A model generated the notes under the pieces. That model was not told where the DNA came from and made no database searches. It saw nothing but the letters and a program-made list of their open reading frames with translations. Shown one piece after another: positions 121 through 63,838 of a DNA stretch of 64,000 nt. The translations under genes were made by a program, and so were the position numbers. Source of the stretch: Candidatus Doudnabacteria bacterium (GTDB lineage Bacteria; Patescibacteriota; JAQUNI01); NCBI GenBank assembly GCA_041644975.1, contig JBAZQX010000006.1:9761-73760 (forward strand). The letters are read 5' to 3'. The first letter of the stretch is position 1, and each line of letters starts with the position of its first letter.

Positions 121-152
121 CCCCGTTTAGAAATTTCTCATTTCTAACGGGG
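121..152. repeat. family A short module (ccccgtttagaaatttctcatttctaacgggg)
   Basis: Same hairpin module as the inner part of the long family A copies. Confidence 0.55.
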
Positions 153-7325: not shown

Positions 7326-7483
7326 CGTCATTGCGAGGAGTCCCGAGCTTGTCGAGGGACGACGAAGCAATCTCATCGAGCGTAATATCTAGTTTTATGA
7401 GATTGCCTGCCCGCCATCGCTTCGCTTCAGGCGAGGCGGGCGGGCTTCGTCGTCGGGCTTCTGCCCTCCTCCTCGCAATGACG
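7326..7483. mobile_element. MITE-like nested palindrome, family B (TIR cgtcattgcgagg / cctcgcaatgacg)
   Basis: ~158-bp imperfect palindrome containing the core gcctgcccgccatcgcttcgcttcaggcgaggcgggcggg; related copies at 22700, 39184, 58864 and the core alone at 23021, 32914, 38286, 38936, 51862. Confidence 0.7.
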
Positions 7484-8235: not shown

Positions 8236-8517
8236 TTAAATCACCTCTATTTTCTTTAATAGCCAGATTTTAGGATAAATGATTCTAAAATTAAAAATAA
8301 CCAATACCTCTTCATAACCAAAACCGCCCCACTAATCCCATAACTTAATGGTTTTGGTTTTGGCAAGTACACCCCGCAAGATATTTTGTCCGCGAGGGCG
8401 AGGCCCATTTTTAAGAAGATTTTCTCATCTTCTCATTCCTTCTCGCTAATTCTCTAGAGATTAGCGAGAAGGTATACGAAAAGATAATCTTCCACTAACA
8501 GGGTAATAAAGAACAAT

Positions 8518-10434
<1,917 letters not shown>

Positions 10435-12289: not shown

Positions 12290-13813
12290 ATGCTTGAAAC
12301 TTCCTTTCAATTATTCCAAAAACAACAAAAATATCTGGAGAAGATGCAGAAAGAGCGACCGGATTTGTTTGAAGTGGACAAGTTGTTTAGGGAGGAAGAA
12401 GTCCTCCCGCAAATTGGGATCACTACCCTAGACCCCAAACGACCCGAAGGTTTTCTGCGTCTTTATCCCCAAGATTTTATTGTTGAAGAAATCCAAAAGG
12501 ATGGAAGTTTGAGCCAAATTGAACCGAAAGACAATGTGCCCGAAAAACCTAAAGAAGAAAAATTTACCCTCTATGCCGATCTGGTTAAAGTAGGAATCTC
12601 TACTTTGGAAGTTGTAAGCCGTCTAGCCAAAGCCTTGGAAATAACACCGAATAAAATCGGGTACGCGGGAATCAAAGATGCCCAAGCGCTATCCAGTCAA
12701 AGAATCGCTCTGCCTAAAATTGGATATGAAAAAGTAAACCCCGTTAGAGAACTTCATTCTCTAACGGTTCCCGCTAACGGTGGCATTAAACCACCGTCAG
12801 CGTCTATATCTTCCCCACCACCGACTTCGTCGGTGGCTTTCTCTAACGGGGTAAAGGATTTAAAGTTAGAGGGGTTTTTTTTAAACAATTTTTTCTATGG
12901 TCGGGGGACAGTAGAGGTTGGAAGCCTGCTTGGCAACCGTTTTACCATCTTCGTCCGCACCGAGAAACGTTTTCCGCGCGAAGAATTAAAAAATAAATTA
13001 GCGGCTATAAAAGAAAAGGGGTTCTTAAACTATTACCAAACCCAACGCTTTGGCGGCGCGAGAATGTTAAGCCACATTCTGGGAAAGTTAATCTTGCAAA
13101 AAAAATATGAGGAGACGGTAAAAACATTCCTCACCACGCCCAGCGATTATAACATTAAACTAATCAAAGCCGTGCGCGCTCGAGCCGCGGAAAATTATGG
13201 CAATTGGAAACGAATGCGGGAAATATTAAATCATCTGCCTTACAACTTTCAGAATGAAATAAAAATATTGGAATATTTGGAAAAATATCCCAGCAATTTC
13301 ATTGGCGCCTTAATCGCCCTCCAAGACCAAACCCAACTTTGGGTCTATGCCTACGCGAGCCTCTTATTTAACGAATATTTATCCTGGGCGACTGAAAATA
13401 ATGAAACCATTCCCCGCGATATCCCTTTGCTTTTAAGCCCTGATTATCAAGACCAAAATTTCTACCGCGTTCTCCTTGACCGCGACGGAATTCGTGATTT
13501 GCAAGAAGCCTTGCGGCCTTTTAAATTTATTCCGATCAAAAGACGTTTTAACCCCGCCTTAATTTTCCTTAAAAACATTCTTGCCAAATCTCTGATGAGT
13601 GGCGTTATCATCAGCTTCTCCTTGGATAAGGGCGCCTATGCCACAACATTCTTAATGAATCTCTTTAAACTGCGCCAGGGTTTGCCCATTCCCGCATGGC
13701 TTAATCGCGATCAGATTGACAGTAAAAAGATCCTGGAAATCGGCACTTGTGAACCGGCTTGCGAGAGATTAAAAGAATATATTTTTTCGGTGTTGGATTA
13801 TGAGAAAGAGTAA
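12290..13813 (+). CDS. truD: tRNA pseudouridine(13) synthase TruD carrying an in-frame repeat insertion
   Basis: YPQDFIVEE N-terminal motif, GIKDAQA catalytic Asp region, NYYQTQRFG motif; 507 aa is long for TruD because of the 12736-12852 element. Confidence 0.8.
   Translation: MLETSFQLFQKQQKYLEKMQKERPDLFEVDKLFREEEVLPQIGITTLDPKRPEGFLRLYPQDFIVEEIQKDGSLSQIEPKDNVPEKPKEEKFTLYADLVKVGISTLEVVSRLAKALEITPNKIGYAGIKDAQALSSQRIALPKIGYEKVNPVRELHSLTVPANGGIKPPSASISSPPPTSSVAFSNGVKDLKLEGFFLNNFFYGRGTVEVGSLLGNRFTIFVRTEKRFPREELKNKLAAIKEKGFLNYYQTQRFGGARMLSHILGKLILQKKYEETVKTFLTTPSDYNIKLIKAVRARAAENYGNWKRMREILNHLPYNFQNEIKILEYLEKYPSNFIGALIALQDQTQLWVYAYASLLFNEYLSWATENNETIPRDIPLLLSPDYQDQNFYRVLLDRDGIRDLQEALRPFKFIPIKRRFNPALIFLKNILAKSLMSGVIISFSLDKGAYATTFLMNLFKLRQGLPIPAWLNRDQIDSKKILEIGTCEPACERLKEYIFSVLDYEKE
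12736..12852 (+). mobile_element. family A MITE-like element inside the truD ORF (in frame)
   Basis: aaaccccgttagagaacttcattctctaacgg ... ccaccaccgacttcgtcggtggctttctctaacgggg; near-identical to intergenic copies at 63700-63838 and 57066-57234. Confidence 0.7.
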
Positions 13814-16997: not shown

Positions 16998-17034
16998 AAA
17001 TCTAATTAAAAGTTTAAAATGAAAAATTAAAAAT

Positions 17035-17069
17035 TATCATCGCTTTGCGAGATCTCGCGAAGCGAGACA
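17035..17069. repeat. family E GC palindrome (tcgctttgcgagatctcgcgaagcga) with flanking tgtaaaat AT-repeats
   Basis: Copies at 17035, 18511, 28728, 33701, each beside (cattttacatt)n tracts. Confidence 0.6.
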
Positions 17070-17135
17070 ACTCAAAATTTAAAATTGAATAATTTTGAAT
17101 TTTACATTGCAATTTTACATTTTACATTTTTAATT

Positions 17136-18500
17136 TTACATTTTCCTCGTCCATTCCTCATTCTGCCTCACCAAAAGCTCCCGCGCGCGCAGAGGCTCCA
17201 GCATAATATCTTTCACGATTTTCTCCATCCGCATTGCCTGCGAACCCTTCACAAGAATAATATCATTGGGTTTTAAAATATTCTCAATATCCTCCAAAAC
17301 CTCGTCGGTGTAATTATATTCAACGATTCTCTCTTCCGACATTCCAGCCCGCCGCGCTTCATCCGAAGCAAAATTCGCTCGGTCGCCGACCGTGATTAAA
17401 AGGTCAGCCATTGAACGGGCAACCCGCCCCACCTCTCTGTGACCCGCTTCTGTTTCTTGCCCGAGCTCCAGCATATCGCCCAAAATTGCCACTCTTCTCC
17501 TTCCGGTGGGCGCAACTTCCGCTAATGCGCGCAAAGCGGCAATCGTAGAGACAGGCGCGGCATTATAAGTATCGTCAATAATCAAACTATTTTTGATCCC
17601 AGGGAGCATGCGCATTCTGCCCGGCGGCGCTTGAAAATGTTTCAGGCTTTCCGAAATCTTAATCAAATTCATTTTAAAATAAATCCCAACGGCGGCGGCG
17701 GCGAGCGCGGCGTAAATCTGATGCCGACCCAAAACTTTTGGCAAATGCACCGGCACACTATTGCCTTTGTAATTTAATTTAAAGCCTAACCCCCCTTGAT
17801 TAGAAATTACACGAATATCTGAAGCCACTATTTCTTCTCGCAAGGGTCTTTCCTCATCCTTTAAAAGACCATATTTTAGAATCGGCGACCGACCCTTCAT
17901 TTCCGCCACGCGGGGATCGTCTCGGTTCAAAACAACAAGACCATCAGCCGCGACTCCCTTGACCAACTTTTCCTTCTCGTCCCGAATCGCTTCCATGGAC
18001 GCAAAAAATTCCAGATGCGAAGGACCAACTGCAGTGACTACGGCAACGTCAGGCCGCGCGATATTCACCAAATAACTAATATCTCCAGGTCTATCCGCGG
18101 CCATTTCTAAAACTAAAATTTCCGGATAATTTTTGGTCTTGCTTAAAACGAGCCTCAAAGCCTGTCCCAAAACATTAAACCAAGCGCCGATGTTCCTCGC
18201 GGGCGCTTTCACGCCAATAATGGCGAATGGCACTCCCAATTCATTATTATAATTCTCCGCGCTTTTGCGCACCCGTCCGGGAAAGGCGGCAGCAAGGACT
18301 GTATAGATGGCGTCTTTGGTGGAGGTCTTGCCCACGCTGCCAGTAACCGCCACAATTTTGGGGCGGTGTTTTTTCAAAATTTTCCGAGCAGATAAAGCGA
18401 GAATTTTTTGAAGAAAAATTTTCATAACTTTAATGCAAAATTGAAAAATCAATCTTTCGACTGTGCTCAAGATTGATGGTGAGCAAAGTCGAACCATCAA
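17136..18500 (-). CDS. murF: UDP-N-acetylmuramoyl-tripeptide--D-alanyl-D-alanine ligase MurF (short N-terminal domain)
   Basis: Mur ligase P-loop VAVTGSVGKTSTKD and C-terminal domain; position in the dcw cluster; true start may be the internal M at ~18423. Confidence 0.75.
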   Translation of the reverse strand: MMVRLCSPSILSTVERLIFQFCIKVMKIFLQKILALSARKILKKHRPKIVAVTGSVGKTSTKDAIYTVLAAAFPGRVRKSAENYNNELGVPFAIIGVKAPARNIGAWFNVLGQALRLVLSKTKNYPEILVLEMAADRPGDISYLVNIARPDVAVVTAVGPSHLEFFASMEAIRDEKEKLVKGVAADGLVVLNRDDPRVAEMKGRSPILKYGLLKDEERPLREEIVASDIRVISNQGGLGFKLNYKGNSVPVHLPKVLGRHQIYAALAAAAVGIYFKMNLIKISESLKHFQAPPGRMRMLPGIKNSLIIDDTYNAAPVSTIAALRALAEVAPTGRRRVAILGDMLELGQETEAGHREVGRVARSMADLLITVGDRANFASDEARRAGMSEERIVEYNYTDEVLEDIENILKPNDIILVKGSQAMRMEKIVKDIMLEPLRARELLVRQNEEWTRKM

Positions 18501-18510
18501 AATGCAAAAT

Positions 18511-18748
18511 GATCATCGCTTCGCGAGATCTCGTCTGAAGATCTGGCGTAGCCATGACAGGCGAGATAGTGCAAAATCACAAAATGAAATTAAGGTTTTT
18601 GGGAATTCGCCATCTATGGTTTCAAGAATCTTGATCCATAACAAACCATAGTTTCTAAAGAATAAATCCTGAATTCCCAACAATAAAGAATAATTTTAAC
18701 ATTTTACATTGTCATTTTAATTTTTGATATTTACATTTTACATTTTTA
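18511..18748. mobile_element. ~240-bp composite repeat element K (copy 1)
   Basis: gatcatcgcttcgcgagatctcg ... tttgggaattcgccatctatggttt ... aattcccaa ... cattttacattttacattt; fills the murF-ftsI intergenic region; second copy at 33701-33960. Confidence 0.55.
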
Positions 18749-20569: not shown

Positions 20570-20632
20570 AAACCCCGTTAGAGAACCTCGTTCTCTAACC
20601 CCGTTTAAAAATTTATTTCTAACGGGGTAAAC
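20570..20632. mobile_element. family A MITE-like element (short form)
   Basis: aaaccccgttagagaacctcgttctctaaccccgtttaaaaatttatttctaacggggtaaac. Confidence 0.65.
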
Positions 20633-27004: not shown

Positions 27005-27430
27005 TTAATTTTTATTACTCTTAATAGTGGATAAGATTTTGGAAAACATTTTGGCGTAGCCTTGAGTTTCTAGCCATAACTTGCGGCATTCACTTTTTAC
27101 GCTAGCATCGGCTTGAGCCAACATTCTTAACCAGTGCATTGTCTCCTTGGCTTCTTTCTTACAGATGTGGATTTTGTTCTTGAAATCTTTTTTACTTGAC
27201 GCGCCGTTCGCTTCCATCCTTCCTTTGTCAGGATTTTCAATATAGTTTGCTCCAATAGAAGTGCCAGCTCTAACCAACTGGCTGATAATGGGTAGAGTCA
27301 CTGCATTTTTAGCCGCTTTCTTGGTTAAAATAATGATTTTCTCCCCTAATTGTTCAAACTTCTCCTCTAAATCATAACTTTGCTTTGTATTTATGCGGGG
27401 CATAAATGGTTTAATAAGTAAATAATTCAA
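27005..27430 (-). CDS. four-helix-bundle protein (23S rRNA intervening-sequence protein family)
   Basis: LVRAGTSIGANYIEN ... KDF ... KEAKETMHWL pattern characteristic of this family. Confidence 0.7.
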   Translation of the reverse strand: MNYLLIKPFMPRINTKQSYDLEEKFEQLGEKIIILTKKAAKNAVTLPIISQLVRAGTSIGANYIENPDKGRMEANGASSKKDFKNKIHICKKEAKETMHWLRMLAQADASVKSECRKLWLETQGYAKMFSKILSTIKSNKN

Positions 27431-27475
27431 TAAAAATTAGCTAAAAATTAATAAATAAAAATTAAAAATTACTTT

Positions 27476-30342: not shown

Positions 30343-30402
30343 TACCCCGTTAGAGAACTTCGTTCTCTAACCCCGTTTAGAAATTTATTTCTAACGGGGT
30401 TT
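30343..30402. mobile_element. family A MITE-like element (short form)
   Basis: ccccgttagagaacttcgttctctaaccccgtttagaaatttatttctaacggggt. Confidence 0.65.
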
Positions 30403-32802: not shown

Positions 32803-32913
32803 ATTTTTATTTTTTGATTTTTAATTTTTAACTAATTTTTATTTGCTTAATTTATATTGTTATCATAAATAATACAATAATCCAATAGCTCAATAAAAAT
32901 TAGCCAAAAACTA

Positions 32914-33665: not shown

Positions 33666-33700
33666 AAATAAATCAAAGTGTAAAAATCAAAATGTAAAAT

Positions 33701-33960
33701 GATCATCGCTTCGCGAGATCTCGCGAAGCGAGACAGTGCAAAATTTTAAAATGAATTACGTTTTTTGGGAATTCACCATTTATGGTTTTAAAACCGAGGT
33801 TTTCATAGGGTTTTGCCACGCCTTTGCCAGCAGTCACTAAAAAGGCGTGAAAAGGCTAAAGTATACCACGGTGAATACAGTGGCCTAAATTCCCAAAATC
33901 ATTTTGACATTTTAAACTGTCATTTTGATTTTTGCATTTTACATTTTACATTTCTATTAT
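33701..33960. mobile_element. ~260-bp composite repeat element K (copy 2)
   Basis: Collinear with 18511-18748: same GC palindrome, ttgggaattcaccatttatggttt, aattcccaa and terminal cattttacattttacattt. Confidence 0.55.
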
Positions 33961-38935: not shown

Positions 38936-38975
38936 CCCGCCCGCCATCGCTTCGCTTCAGGCGAGGCGGGCGGGC
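38936..38975. repeat. family B core repeat
   Basis: ccccgcccgccatcgcttcgcttcaggcgaggcgggcggg. Confidence 0.65.
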
Positions 38976-39097
38976 ATCTCCCCCTCTTAATCAAGGGGGG
39001 AGTAAAAATCCTTGCTTTTTTTCTTTAGATATGATATAATATAACCATCAAGTACAAAGAGCTCGCCCCGTGTCTAAAGCGAGCTTTTCGGCTTTTT

Positions 39098-41210: not shown

Positions 41211-41713
41211 TCAAATTTAATTATTATCAAACACGAAAGTCCTATACTTATTGATTTATTGTATTGCCAAGATTAAATAATGCAATAAGACATTAAAACA
41301 ATAAAAATTAGCTAAAAATTAAAAAATAAAAATTAAAAATTATTCGTCTGTGGATAACTTTTTGACTCCTCTAAGCAAGGTGAGATATAATGATATATCT
41401 TTAGGAATTTAAGCCTCAAAAATAAAAAAATAATGTTTCAGAAAGAGCGAGGAAACCGAGTCAAAAAAAATCAATTCAGCGGATGGATTGTTTATATTTT
41501 ATTGATAAAAAAACAACGCAGTCGAAAGTCCCTTTGTTAATTCAAGGGACTTTTTAAATAAAATAAGTTTGCTTTCTAGCCTCTTTGAAATCAAAGAGGT
41601 ACATCCCCATACTTCTAAAAGTGTGGGGGTAAAAAACAAAGACTTTAACAAGGAGGGATAAGTCTCCCCTTTTTAATTTATAAGTAAGAAGTAATAAGTG
41701 AGAAAAAATAAAG

Positions 41714-42064
41714 ATGATTCAGAGAGATATTGAGAAAAGAAGTTTTGATTTCGCGGTGAGGGTAATTAAGATGGTTAATGAACTGCCTAAAAGTATAGCC
41801 GCCTATGAACTAGGCAAACAGGCAATCAGATCAGCTTCTTCTATTAACTCCAACATTGTCCAAGCAAGATCAGGTGTAAGCAAAGCAGATTTTGTGCAAC
41901 ATATGAAAGTTGCTTTGAAAGAAGCGAAGGAAACTGAAAGATGGATTGAGATGATGATAGCAGTTAATCTAGTCTCTAAAACAAAGACAGCATCACTTTT
42001 ACAAGAAAATGTAGAAATCATCAAAATCTTGGTCACCATCGTCAAAAATGCCCAAGTAAAATGA
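41714..42064 (+). CDS. four-helix-bundle protein (23S rRNA IVS protein family), second copy
   Basis: ASSINSNIVQA ... ADF ... KEAKETERWI pattern. Confidence 0.7.
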   Translation: MIQRDIEKRSFDFAVRVIKMVNELPKSIAAYELGKQAIRSASSINSNIVQARSGVSKADFVQHMKVALKEAKETERWIEMMIAVNLVSKTKTASLLQENVEIIKILVTIVKNAQVK

Positions 42065-57065: not shown

Positions 57066-57234
57066 AAACCCCATTAAAGAACTTCATTCTTTAACGGTTT
57101 TCGCTGACACCGTTAGATGTTTACTATCTAACGGGGTCAGCATCTATATTTTTCCACCATCGACTTTGTCGACGTGTCCCGTTACAAATTCATTTGTAAC
57201 GGGATGAACTTTCTCTAACGGGGTAAAAAAACCG
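57066..57234. mobile_element. family A MITE-like element (long form)
   Basis: aaaccccattaaagaacttcattctttaacgg ... ccaccatcgactttgtcgacg ... ctttctctaacggggtaaa. Confidence 0.6.
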
Positions 57235-57597: not shown

Positions 57598-57702
57598 ACC
57601 CCGTTAGAAACATGCCCCGCAGCTAGGCTAGCGGTTAATGTAGAAATATAGATAACTCGTGCGGTTGGGTTTCATGCCCCGCGCGAGTTTCTAACGGGGT
57701 TG
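57598..57702. mobile_element. family A-related element (divergent)
   Basis: gaccccgttagaaacatgccccgc ... catgccccgcgcgagtttctaacggggttgac. Confidence 0.5.
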
Positions 57703-59059: not shown

Positions 59060-60235
59060 ATGACCATCTCCCAAGCCTTATCCCAAGCCATGAAAAAACT
59101 CAAATTGAGCAAAATTCCCTCCGCCCCTTTAGACGCGGAGATTTTATTATCTTCTGTTTTAAGGAAAAAACGAGAATATCTGCTTGCGCACCCAGGGGAC
59201 GCCATAACTCTCAGCCAAAGCCAAAAATACCAAGCCTTAATCTCGCGCCGCGTTAAAGGTGAACCCGCGGCTTATCTCACGCATCACAAAGAATTTTACG
59301 GTCTGGATTTTTATGTCAATAAAAATACTCTCATCCCGCGGCCGGAGTCAGAATTAATCATTGAGGAGGTCAAAAAAATTGCAGCATCACCAATCATTAT
59401 TGACGTAGGCACAGGATCGGGGTGTCTCGCGATTACCTTGGCGTACAGCATACCGCAAGCTGCTGTCTACGCCACTGACCTTTCGCCAAAAGCGCTTTCT
59501 ATCGCCCGAAGAAACGCCCGCTTACATAAGATAAACCCCGTTAGAGAACCTCGTTCTCTAACCCAGTCTAGAAATTTATTTCTAACGGGGCTAAAATCGG
59601 CGGGTTTCTCTAACGGGATAAAAATCAAATTCCTGCGAGGCAATCTCCTTTCGCCCTTGCCGTCTTGCGTTTGGCAGCTGCCAAGCAAAAAAATTATTAT
59701 CGCCAATCTCCCCTATCTTTCAGAAAAATACCGCAAAGATATTCGCGACACGAGCTTAAGATATGAACCGCGAGAAGCTCTTTGGGGCGGCAAAGACGGT
59801 TTAAAATATTACCGGCAATTATTTCAACAAATTTCCAAAATTATACAATCTCGCGCAATAGACCTCACTATTTTAATTGAAATTAATCCGGAACAAACAA
59901 TTAGAATAAAAAAGGTAATTAAACAATATCTTCCCTGCGCGGAAATAAAAATAAAAAAAGACCTCGCGGGTCTTAATCGTATTGCAGTTATTCAAATGGA
60001 CAGGCGAAAGCCTGCTAAAATGAGGTCATGCTGCGAGAGCGCGACACAGGTAAGTGTCAGACTTTCGCCCTTACAGGACCTTCGGCCTGACCTCCAAAAT
60101 AACACACTTTCCGCCTGCGTCCGCAAAAGGCGGACTGCGGCGAGACGAGGTCGTGTGTTACTCCAAAAATTGCTCCCACCCCCTCTTGTCTCCCCCTGTT
60201 TGTCTTCTCTTCAGAGTCTGAACGACCTGAACTAG
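59060..60235 (+). CDS. prmC: release factor glutamine methyltransferase PrmC (HemK) with in-frame repeat insertion and C-terminal read-through
   Basis: PLDAEILLSSVL N-terminal motif, SAM motif IDVGTGSGCLAITLA, NPPY-type ANLPY; 391 aa versus ~280 expected; the last ~80 codons run through GC-rich repeats. Confidence 0.8.
   Translation: MTISQALSQAMKKLKLSKIPSAPLDAEILLSSVLRKKREYLLAHPGDAITLSQSQKYQALISRRVKGEPAAYLTHHKEFYGLDFYVNKNTLIPRPESELIIEEVKKIAASPIIIDVGTGSGCLAITLAYSIPQAAVYATDLSPKALSIARRNARLHKINPVREPRSLTQSRNLFLTGLKSAGFSNGIKIKFLRGNLLSPLPSCVWQLPSKKIIIANLPYLSEKYRKDIRDTSLRYEPREALWGGKDGLKYYRQLFQQISKIIQSRAIDLTILIEINPEQTIRIKKVIKQYLPCAEIKIKKDLAGLNRIAVIQMDRRKPAKMRSCCESATQVSVRLSPLQDLRPDLQNNTLSACVRKRRTAARRGRVLLQKLLPPPLVSPCLSSLQSLNDLN
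59533..59616 (+). mobile_element. family A MITE-like element inside the prmC ORF (in frame)
   Basis: aaaccccgttagagaacctcgttctctaacccagtctagaaatttatttctaacggggctaaaatcggcgggtttctctaacggga. Confidence 0.7.
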
Positions 60236-60245: not shown

Positions 60246-60522
60246 TAACCTTTCTTGCCCTGTAGTCCGCCTTAGGCGGACAGGGCTTGCTTTCCAATAA
60301 TTTTTGTTTTTTATATTTAAAAACCAACCTTTTGTATTCGGCAAGCCGCTTTTCGGCCTTAAAAACCTTTGTCTGCAACAAAACAAAGCTTTTCCCGCTC
60401 CCCTTGCCCTTCTTAAATAAATCTATTTTTTTTCTAATCTCCTTGAGCTCTCCTTCAAAACTGGCAAGCTTTGCTAAAAGCACTGTCCGCTTAATCTTCG
60501 TCTTTTTATTTTTCTCGGGCAT
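60238..60522 (-). CDS. small basic protein (hypothetical)
   Basis: 94 aa, Lys-rich; the C-terminal region overlaps a repeat. Confidence 0.3.
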   Translation of the reverse strand: MPEKNKKTKIKRTVLLAKLASFEGELKEIRKKIDLFKKGKGSGKSFVLLQTKVFKAEKRLAEYKRLVFKYKKQKLLESKPCPPKADYRARKVRS

Positions 60523-62332: not shown

Positions 62333-62923
62333 CTATTGTTCAAATCCTCCAGTTACCCAATCAAACTCACTTTGCCAATTACGCCCAGAACAACTCCAGC
62401 CGGGGCTATTCGGATGGGGATTACCGCTTGTCTCTATATCTACTACTCCTAAAACATAAAAGGCTCCTCGGGAAGCATCACAACCATAACTCCCAGCAGG
62501 ATAACGGTAATAGCGATAATTCCCACAATTATAATTATTGGTCGGATCTCTCACCTCTTGGCTTAATAATCCTGCCGTTCTTAAAGGAGAAATAAAATCA
62601 CCATCTCCGGGAGTGTCCCAACCACCACAACCCTGATAGTCTGAACTAGGATATAACCCGTATTGATCATAATACAGCGCCAGGGCAGTTATCAACTGTT
62701 TCATTGCCGCTAATCTTTGGGTATCTCGCGCTTTTTTTCGGGCATTATTCACAGACACAGTCACGATTGTTGCCAAAAGACCGATGATCGCAATTACCAC
62801 CAAAAGCTCAATTAGAGTAAACCCCGTTAAATGCCGCTTCACGGCAATTTTGCCAAAAGCAAAATTATTTAATGGGGTAAAAGCCATTGAGTGAACAGCG
62901 CGTTTTTTATTTTTGCAAAACAT
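62333..62923 (-). CDS. type IV pilin / pseudopilin with prepilin-type N-terminal methylation domain
   Basis: [21 protein letters not shown] class III signal sequence. Confidence 0.7.
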
Positions 62924-63693: not shown

Positions 63694-63699
63694 ATTTGT

Positions 63700-63838
63700 A
63701 AACCCCGTTAGAGAACTTCATTCTCTAACGGTTCTATTAAACCACCGTCAGCCCCGTTAGAAATTTATTTCTAACGGGGTCAGCGCCTATATTTTTCCCA
63801 CCACCACCGACTTTGTCGGTGGCTTTCTCTAACGGGGT
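63700..63838. mobile_element. family A MITE-like element (long form)
   Basis: aaaccccgttagagaacttcattctctaacgg ... ccccgttagaaatttatttctaacgggg ... ccaccaccaccgactttgtcggtggctttctctaacgggg; directly upstream of rplY. Confidence 0.65.

Follow-up and report, generated by a model that had tools for sequence, protein, structure and literature searches.

Short palindromic elements with target-site duplications in a Doudnabacteria genome and their relatives in other bacterial phyla

Rickettsia palindromic elements (RPEs) are small palindromic repeats that lie in frame in unrelated housekeeping genes, are translated, are compatible with the fold of the host protein and have no known transposase (PMC10969869). 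Miniature transposable elements with inverted repeats (MITEs) of bacteria, such as Correia, ERIC and the Coxiella QMITE, occasionally form in-frame gene fusions (PMC10969869, PMC5896051). Repetitive extragenic palindromic sequences (REPs) are described as extragenic and marked by a GTAG or CGTC tag (PMC3733652). Here we describe family A, a family of palindromic repeats of 28-155 nt without coding capacity of their own, in a 64,000-nt stretch of DNA (the window, approximately positions 9795-73794 of an 86,805-nt contig). The contig is part of a metagenome-assembled genome from Candidatus Doudnabacteria, which belongs to the candidate phyla radiation. The data make it probable that family A is a MITE-like family of mobile, non-autonomous DNA elements that move by the mechanism proposed below.

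The closest formal class for family A is the MITE, and the closest behaviour is that of the RPEs. Like classical MITEs, its copies are short and non-coding, have terminal inverted repeats and a target duplication and are numerous; every MITE trait tested (size, inverted repeats, duplication, empty sites) was found except a parent insertion sequence (IS). Unlike classical MITEs, family A has an asymmetric target, a strictly fixed orientation and covarying internal hairpins, and no parent IS is known. With the RPEs it shares in-frame insertions (in truD, prmC and a pilin gene), an insert modelled as a disordered loop (in TruD) and the lack of a known transposase. It differs from them in its 14-bp inverted ends, its 4-bp duplication at G|TAAA and its fixed orientation, and it is spread over many phyla, whereas RPEs are confined to one genus. 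The two families are not known to be related in sequence.

Derivatives of the IS200/IS605 family and REPs with their REP-associated tyrosine transposases (RAYTs) are likewise hairpin-rich, with a short asymmetric T-rich target and a fixed orientation. However, IS200/IS605 elements have neither terminal inverted repeats nor a target duplication, and family A has both. Compared with REPs, family A lacks the tag, a third of its window copies are intragenic, and the Y1 transposase gene found on the contig is not flanked by copies. The 4-bp duplication at a T/A-rich word and the ends, which consist of a C run followed by TAGA-like bases, resemble piggyBac and IS1380, but these use a palindromic TTAA target in free orientation.

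Structure and insertion of family A copies

The 10-mer TCTAACGGGG occurs 22 times in the window when one mismatch is allowed, compared to 3.09 ± 1.72 times (maximum 8) in dinucleotide-preserving shuffles. Nine family A copies were delimited (Table 1). The original prediction, made by a model from the letters of the window, had listed eight copies, all of which were recovered with refined boundaries; the ninth copy, at 62822-62877, was not among them. A nucleotide profile built from long copies of other genomes recovered six of the nine, all in plus orientation (12739-12851, 63703-63837, 59536-59617, 57069-57223 and the copies starting at 30345 and 20573). At least two further copies are located on the same contig to the right of the window (L117, 4173-4263 and 8123-8132).

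Altogether, 135 elements were delimited in the window and in 114 further loci; 50 of them are 31 nt long and 36 are 110 or 113 nt long. The master form has 113 nt, as in the truD copy of the window. Its ends are perfect 14-bp terminal inverted repeats, CCCCGTTAGAGAAC ... GTTCTCTAACGGGG, the right repeat of the 113-nt form being CTTTCTCTAACGGGG. Hairpin A (CCCCGTTAGAGAAC, a loop of 3-5 nt, (G)TTCTCTAACGG) arises by pairing of the left terminal repeat with its own inverted copy further inside the element; it is followed by hairpin 2 (GCTGACGGTGG-CATTAAA-CCACCGTCAGC) and hairpin 3 (CCACCGAC-TTC-GTCGGTGG). Folding of the 113-nt copy as single-stranded DNA yielded three hairpins at -31.9 kcal/mol, compared to an average of -11.35 for shuffled sequences (z = -8.9). 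The three hairpins and the inverted outer ends that had originally been proposed are real. In an alignment of 32 long copies, pairing within hairpins 2 and 3 is kept in 87% of the cells, with two-sided changes in 11 of 19 pairs. The covariation score was 0.295, compared to 0.171 for shuffled alignments (none of 500 reached the observed value) and at most 0.147 with slid partners, showing that the internal hairpins 2 and 3 are kept by compensatory changes. Since G-T and A-C mismatches are equally frequent in the stems (31 versus 28), there is no sign of a strand-specific RNA.

Two relatives (L113 and L114), with 94-97% DNA identity, carry an uninterrupted truD gene with the sequence GGATATGAAAAAGTAAAGGAT / GGATATGAAAAAGTAAAGGATTTAAAG, and the filled site in the window reads ...AAAAAGTAAA (CCCC...113 nt...GGGG) TAAAGGATTTAAAG, that is, ...GTAAA (113 nt) TAAAGGAT. 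The insertion is precise and comprises 117 nt in total, including a 4-bp duplication of TAAA. The reverse polymorphism was also found: L114 contains a copy of approximately 160 nt flanked by TTTA, and the corresponding window site at 8515-8525 is uninterrupted (GAACAATTTATTTCTTCAC). As both comparable sites are polymorphic between genomes that are about 95% identical, family A has recently been active. The reading of the repeat as a non-autonomous transposable element is borne out by these observations; target-site duplications at the copy boundaries and empty sites in related strains had been suggested as checks, and both were found, the latter as one polymorphism in each direction.

The flanking words are not always TAAA. 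Matched non-canonical flanks are TGAA (six copies, four of them orientable), CAAA (two copies), TTCA, TAGA, TAAG and TTGA. Matched variants that differ from TAAA by one transition occur in different subfamilies. In the genome MHFY01, one and the same subfamily has TAAA flanks (L046, L047, L081) and TGAA flanks (L108) with unchanged terminal sequences. Since matched variant flanks occur without any change in the terminal sequence, the duplication is genuine and not a fixed word at the element's end. Two other explanations of the flanks were rejected: a recombinase with a heritable overlap, as TGAA-flanked copies come from four different subfamilies, and a 2-bp TA duplication of the IS630 type, as the fourth base always co-varies.

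Base preferences at the target were derived from 56 reconstructed empty sites. In the duplicated word, T occupies the first position in 100% of these sites, and A follows in 91%, 96% and 100%; the word is preceded by G in 91% (position -1) and by A in 62% (position -2), and the 3' positions are unbiased. When copies were oriented with hairpin A at the left, the flanks were TAAA/TAAA in 50 cases, TGAA/TGAA in four, TAGA/TAGA in one and TTTA/TTTA in one. Hairpin A thus adjoins the G side of the target, with an orientation ratio of 50:1 among orientable copies. Based on flank counts and base frequencies, the target is an asymmetric (A)G|TAAA (TTTA|C on the other strand), which accepts the element in one orientation. 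Fixed orientation had been overlooked in the original prediction, as had the in-frame insertions and the spread across phyla described below.

Copies differ in their combination of modules, as noted in the original prediction, and these differences are better explained by nested insertions. The copy at 63703-63837 corresponds to the copy at 12739-12851 plus a 28-nt palindrome (63752-63779); this palindrome is flanked on both sides by TCAG (63748-63751 and 63780-63783), which is present once in the 12739 copy. Likewise, in L114 two TTAG words enclose a mini-palindrome that interrupts a larger copy in its left terminal repeat. Because they have duplications of their own (TCAG, TTAG), the mini-palindromes are small members of the same superfamily that inserted into larger copies. 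A deletion across an internal 11-nt direct repeat, TTCTCTAACGG, probably contributes to the module differences as well, and the 31-nt form would be the exact product expected of a deletion between these repeats. Head-to-tail tandem arrays of a 53-nt variant were seen in an Omnitrophota locus (L036, 4440-4565 and 5418-5553); neighbouring copies share a single TAAG or TTTA, and the arrays resemble clusters of bacterial interspersed mosaic elements (BIMEs).

Family A might alternatively be a REP/BIME-like palindrome maintained by the host, or a structured RNA such as a terminator or mRNA stabiliser, that was spread by recombination. The hairpins are stable, several copies lie between operon genes or just past stop codons, and tandem arrays are present in Omnitrophota. 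Nevertheless, we consider this explanation very improbable. Insertion is precise, duplicates the target and is polymorphic, three of the nine window copies are intragenic, near-identical sequences occur across phyla, the stem mismatches do not point to a strand-specific RNA, and searches of the window and eight loci against Rfam returned tRNAs only and no match for family A. A REP/BIME-like repeat had been offered as the second possibility in the original prediction; it does not fit, given the duplicated target words next to the copies and the intragenic position of a third of the window copies. Two further repeat classes were examined and dismissed. Integron attC sites (defined here by RYYYAAC on the 5' arm, GTTRRRY on the 3' arm and cassette arrays) have the reverse polarity, family A carrying GTTAGAG on the 5' arm and CTCTAAC on the 3' arm, with copies dispersed among housekeeping genes. 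[quoted passage not shown]

A chimeric or collapsed assembly, with copies at contig ends, had been named as an observation that would overturn the repeat family. One Logan contig does end within the 62822 copy, as assemblers do at repeats. However, the window copies are internal to the 86.8-kb contig, the copy at 121-152 is also internal to an independent Logan assembly, the reading frames of host genes are preserved, and in other phyla copies lie within long contigs as well as in a complete genome. An assembly artefact is excluded since the copies are contig-internal, one of them in an independent assembly too, and the chance that assembly or binning produced the family is negligible.

Table 1. 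Family A copies, their host genes and other repeats and elements of the contig. Positions refer to the window unless a locus is named; lengths and refined element coordinates leave out the duplication.
Feature	Position	Strand	Length	Duplication or flanks	Remarks
Mini-palindrome copy	121-152		32 nt	TTGC / TTTA, no clean duplication	CCCCGTTTAGAAAT-TTCTC-ATTTCTAACGGGG; intergenic, 56 nt past the stop of the V-ATPase subunit I gene
Full-length element with duplication	12735-12855	+	113 nt (12739-12851)	TAAA (12735-12738, 12852-12855)	Hairpin A 12741-12767, hairpin 2 12772-12802, hairpin 3 12818-12836
Short composite copy	20573-20627	+	55 nt	TAAA	Hairpin A fused to mini-palindrome; intergenic, penicillin-binding protein gene on one side, DivIC-like gene on the other
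Short composite copy	30345-30399	+	55 nt	TTTA	Divergent intergenic region; sole exception to the orientation rule
Degenerate long copy	57069-57223	+	155 nt	CAAA / TAAA	Two inner mini-palindromes (57108-57136, 57177-57205); flanked by rpsB and rpmE
Variant subfamily copy	57599-57699		101 nt	TTGA	Ends CCCCGTTAGAAAC / GTTTCTAACGGGG, different interior; flanked by rpmE and prfA
Truncated composite copy	59536-59618	+	83 nt	TAAA	In prmC
Variant copy	62822-62877		56 nt	TAAA (TTTA on gene strand)	CCCCGTTAAATGCC...ATTTAATGGGG
Long copy	63703-63837	+	135 nt	TAAA	
truD (tRNA pseudouridine-13 synthase)	12290-13813	+	507 aa		Host of the 113-nt copy
prmC (release-factor glutamine methyltransferase)	59060-60235	+			Host of the 83-nt copy
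Prepilin-type gene	62333-62923	-			N_methyl motif at residues 34-54 of a long open reading frame; host of the 56-nt copy
IS200-like element	L115 21330-21953				147-aa Y1 gene; at contig end; left-end hairpin CCACCGACGTAGTCGGT
GC-rich hairpin repeat, not family A	7406-7448, 38936-38978				
Second GC-rich hairpin repeat, not family A	17003-17090, 18484-18533, 33669-33756				

In-frame copies within genes

Of the nine copies in the window, three lie within genes and keep the reading frame, namely those in truD, prmC and a prepilin-type gene. The TruD protein of the window has 507 aa, compared to 468 aa in its closest ortholog (P0002), to which it is 94% identical outside a single clean gap; this gap of 39 aa corresponds to the insert. 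An AlphaFold model based on an alignment of 117 sequences reached a mean predicted local distance difference test score (pLDDT) of 91.8. Residues 152-184, which correspond to the insert and are located between two confident strands, are the only segment with a pLDDT below 50, and the insert is accordingly modelled as a disordered loop. In prmC, 87 nt (29 aa) are inserted after ...ARRNARLHK, and the orthologs do not have this insert.

In the prepilin gene, 60 nt extend the leader by 20 aa, the gene strand reading ATG GCT TTT A(CC CCA ... ACG GGG) TTT ACT CTA ATT GAG. The end of the element together with the duplication re-creates the prepilin cleavage motif TG|FTLIE. Leaders of homologs comprise about 3-12 aa (for example MNRG|FTLVE and MNKKA|FTLTE), and a second pilin (P0292) carries a full copy at the same G|FT position. 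The preferred target GTAAA, read on the opposite strand, gives TTT-AC, the codons of the conserved FT.

Read-through is not restricted to the window. Long copies in other phyla are read through in both orientations, and hosts supported by Pfam include proB, a MiaB-like radical-SAM enzyme, an IF-2B family protein, a transglutaminase-like protein and TPR proteins (one with LysM); a GIY-YIG protein and ribosomal protein S17 are further examples. For 40 of 50 long copies, the length plus 4 is divisible by 3. Frame +2 is stop-free in 27 of 40 copies and frame -0 in 24 of 40, compared to 28-29% of shuffled interiors of the same composition; the other four frames always contain stops. Because length plus duplication is usually a multiple of three and one frame per orientation is usually stop-free, copies inside genes are read through and persist.

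A profile search with the translated element retrieved 56 short hypothetical proteins and missed the 507-aa TruD, and it is therefore unfit for counting host genes. Dozens of these database entries (P0241-P0296, 43-137 aa) are mere translations of family A; in annotation, family A inflates or fuses gene calls.

Several minor observations concern the genes next to or around copies. Beyond the point where all orthologs stop, the prmC reading frame remains open for about 80 aa (window 59995-60235). The stretch that it crosses is GC-rich, has an 18-nt inverted repeat (60119-60136 / 60264-60281) and gave no Rfam hit. It seems that the stop codon was lost, that another insertion took place or that the stretch is an unrecognised RNA gene. 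One prmC ortholog (P0122) has an 11-aa insertion of its own at another position. The copy at 63703-63837 ends 9 nt upstream of the start codon of the ribosomal protein L25 gene (63693, minus strand; interval 63694-63703), and its terminal GGGG is at the place expected for the L25 ribosome-binding site.

Occurrence in other phyla

The distribution of family A was determined by scanning one genome per GTDB species for the 27-nt hairpin motif CCCCGTTAGAGAACNNNNTTCTCTAAC. More than 111 loci contained the motif, and ten or more bacterial phyla besides that of the window carry family A. Omnitrophota contributed at least 20 genomes, among them the complete one of Ca. Velamenicoccus archaeovorus (CP019384). 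Further carriers are Planctomycetia, Pirellulales, Deltaproteobacteria, Thermodesulfobacteriota, Nitrospirota, Ratteibacteria, Auribacterota and Elusimicrobia, as well as one Ignavibacterium bin and one Saccharibacteria bin. One copy of the window is approximately 93% identical to an Omnitrophota copy (L025), and copies reside on contigs of 88-631 kb in addition to the complete genome. Plasmid, phage and IMG/VR viral collections contained no match to family A. Full-text literature searches, made both with the end sequences and for MITEs of Omnitrophota and the other phyla, returned nothing relevant.

Near-identical elements in distant uncultivated phyla are a marker of DNA exchange between them. 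Moreover, family A represents selfish DNA that colonises essential genes of bacteria whose genomes are among the smallest and most densely packed with genes, which was previously seen mainly in Rickettsia.

Candidate enzymes, mode of transposition and other features of the region

No cognate transposase is encoded in the window, as originally noted, and none was found in the approximately 700 kb of loci that flank copies. An IS with the same ends was absent from the window, from the 114 flanking loci and from the plasmid, phage and viral collections. Searching all loci for 13-mer ends paired at 400-5000 nt with equal flanks, as expected for an autonomous element, returned neighbouring small copies only, and "solo" ends proved to be chance matches or copies with one decayed end. 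When the 538 open reading frames (ORFs) of the flanking loci with a minimum length of 200 aa were clustered all against all, only housekeeping families emerged, and further contig context likewise contained only housekeeping genes. No copy had a transposase of the piggyBac/IS1380 type nearby.

An IS200-like Y1 transposase gene (147 aa, Pfam Y1_Tnp, E = 1.3e-39) is encoded on the same contig, about 9.3 kb to the left of the window; the search for an IS200/IS605 or RAYT-like gene, which had been proposed as a check, was successful in part. The end hairpins of this IS200-like element and of its relatives (63-97% protein identity) have the stem CCACCGAC / GTCGGT(G/C)G, which is the stem of hairpin 3. 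In the relatives L121-L125 the left-end hairpin is CCACCGAC-GAA-GTCGGT, and the identity to the reverse complement of hairpin 3 extends over 17 nt including the loop; in the element of this contig the loop is GTA and the match comprises the stem only. The distance from this hairpin to the end of the element is 13 nt in the IS and 15 nt in family A. Within the window, CACCGAC-N3-5-GTCGGTG occurs only inside family A copies (0.00 expected). Relatives of the IS200-like element in groundwater metagenomes end with ...GTAGTTTAAT or ...GTTTATT, and four bases 5' of their right-end hairpin co-vary with the end word (AATT/TTAA, AATA/TTAT).

These features raise the question whether an IS200/IS605-type Y1 (HUH) transposase mobilises family A, the long form being a palindrome-associated non-autonomous derivative. 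Single-stranded DNA would then insert 3' of TTTA(C) on the lagging-strand template, and the right TTTA would be the element's own cleavage site instead of a duplication. A short asymmetric T-rich target and a fixed orientation are typical of IS200/IS605 elements (IS608, ISDra2), and family A has both. The presence of the Y1 gene, the shared stem and similar spacing of the hairpins, and the co-variation in the IS relatives, which resembles the guide pairing of IS608, also argue for a Y1 enzyme. The same holds for a moderate orientation bias towards the C-rich strand (44 of 66 copies, binomial p ~0.009; five of five scored window copies). On the other hand, matched non-canonical flanks without a change in the putative guide bases indicate a real duplication, and peel-and-paste transposition makes none. 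Perfect 14-bp terminal inverted repeats are absent from IS200/IS605, and the right-end hairpin of family A differs from that of the IS. In addition, a metagenome scan yielded 65 loci with Y1 relatives, and the approximately 307 kb around them contained no family A copy (five motif hits compared to about 18 expected in a rough estimate assuming uniform composition), and tblastn with the Y1 transposase found no homolog in the approximately 700 kb around family A copies. Mobilisation by a Y1 enzyme is kept as a rival because of the real duplication, the perfect inverted ends and the Y1 relatives without accompanying copies, and we regard it as unlikely.

Another explanation is that family A is an ordinary MITE derived from a DDE-type IS with 4-bp duplications (IS1380/piggyBac-like or IS5-like), the parent being located elsewhere in the genome. 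Ends of the IS1380 family begin with CC and generate 4-5-bp duplications, and piggyBac ends are CCCTAGA with a duplicated TTAA. Perfect terminal inverted repeats, the real 4-bp duplication, nested insertions and tandem arrays with one shared duplication would agree with this origin. However, symmetric DDE complexes predict neither a target without two-fold symmetry nor an orientation of 50:1, and compensatory upkeep of internal hairpins would be needless if the ends alone counted. No ORF bounded by family A ends was present in any locus examined, nor were there matches in the plasmid, phage and viral collections. A DDE parent is thus a possibility that we entertain tentatively.

We favour a non-autonomous, MITE-like element with the following mode of movement. 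The transposing unit is the 110-113-nt element with its perfect 14-bp terminal inverted repeats, which inserts at 5'-G|TAAA-3', duplicating TAAA and placing hairpin A towards the G side. Deletion between the 11-nt internal direct repeats would give rise to the 31-nt palindromes, and insertion of 28-nt mini-palindromes of the same superfamily into larger copies generates the composite copies. Copies within genes are read through as surface loops of 20-39 aa and persist. Mobilisation in trans by a transposase encoded elsewhere is probable. Asymmetry of the target, fixed orientation, conservation of the hairpins and the match to IS200-type end hairpins suggest that this enzyme reads one strand or a folded hairpin, unlike a classical DDE transposase with its two-fold symmetry. 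The distribution across phyla is probably explained by horizontal transfer between uncultivated bacteria that share a habitat.

Several points weigh against this proposal. No autonomous element with the same ends was found in the loci searched, and mobilisation in trans is inferred. We know of no transposase family that predicts a 4-bp duplication together with a strictly asymmetric target and a fixed orientation. The prepilin insertion is deduced from the leader length of homologs instead of a near-identical empty allele. Frame compatibility could stem in part from a few founder copies and GC-rich stems and not from selection. Finally, some phylum assignments come from metagenome bins with short contigs, in which contamination may be present.

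A real duplication combined with an asymmetric target and a fixed orientation lies outside the textbook transposase families, and the enzyme could reveal a new insertion mechanism whose target is defined and very short. It is conceivable, although we would not presume it, that an undescribed mode of transposition is at work. A hairpin-reading, strand-specific enzyme, possibly Y1/HUH-related and yet producing a 4-bp duplication, would have moved a structured 113-nt element among at least ten phyla. The length and codon content of the element would be tuned to residence in essential genes where genomes are very small (candidate phyla radiation, Omnitrophota), and the prepilin FT codons (TTT-AC) would serve as a recurrent, self-healing landing site.

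Besides family A, the region contains other repeats. Two families of GC-rich hairpin repeats have copies that are 83-95% identical and no relationship to family A, and AT-rich simple repeats of the AAAATT type are present in most intergenic regions of the window. Two genes for 23S-rRNA-intervening-sequence (four-helix-bundle) proteins (window 27005-27430, minus strand, and 41714-42064, plus strand) both adjoin a shared AT-rich repeat of about 90 nt, which is found at 27380-27471, 41251-41342 and 32842-32913. The repeat and the four-helix-bundle gene may form another small mobile unit. An A/V-type ATPase operon with its full set of genes (subunits I, c, AC39, F, A, B and D) is encoded at L115 10001-19310 and reaches into the window at 208-2160.

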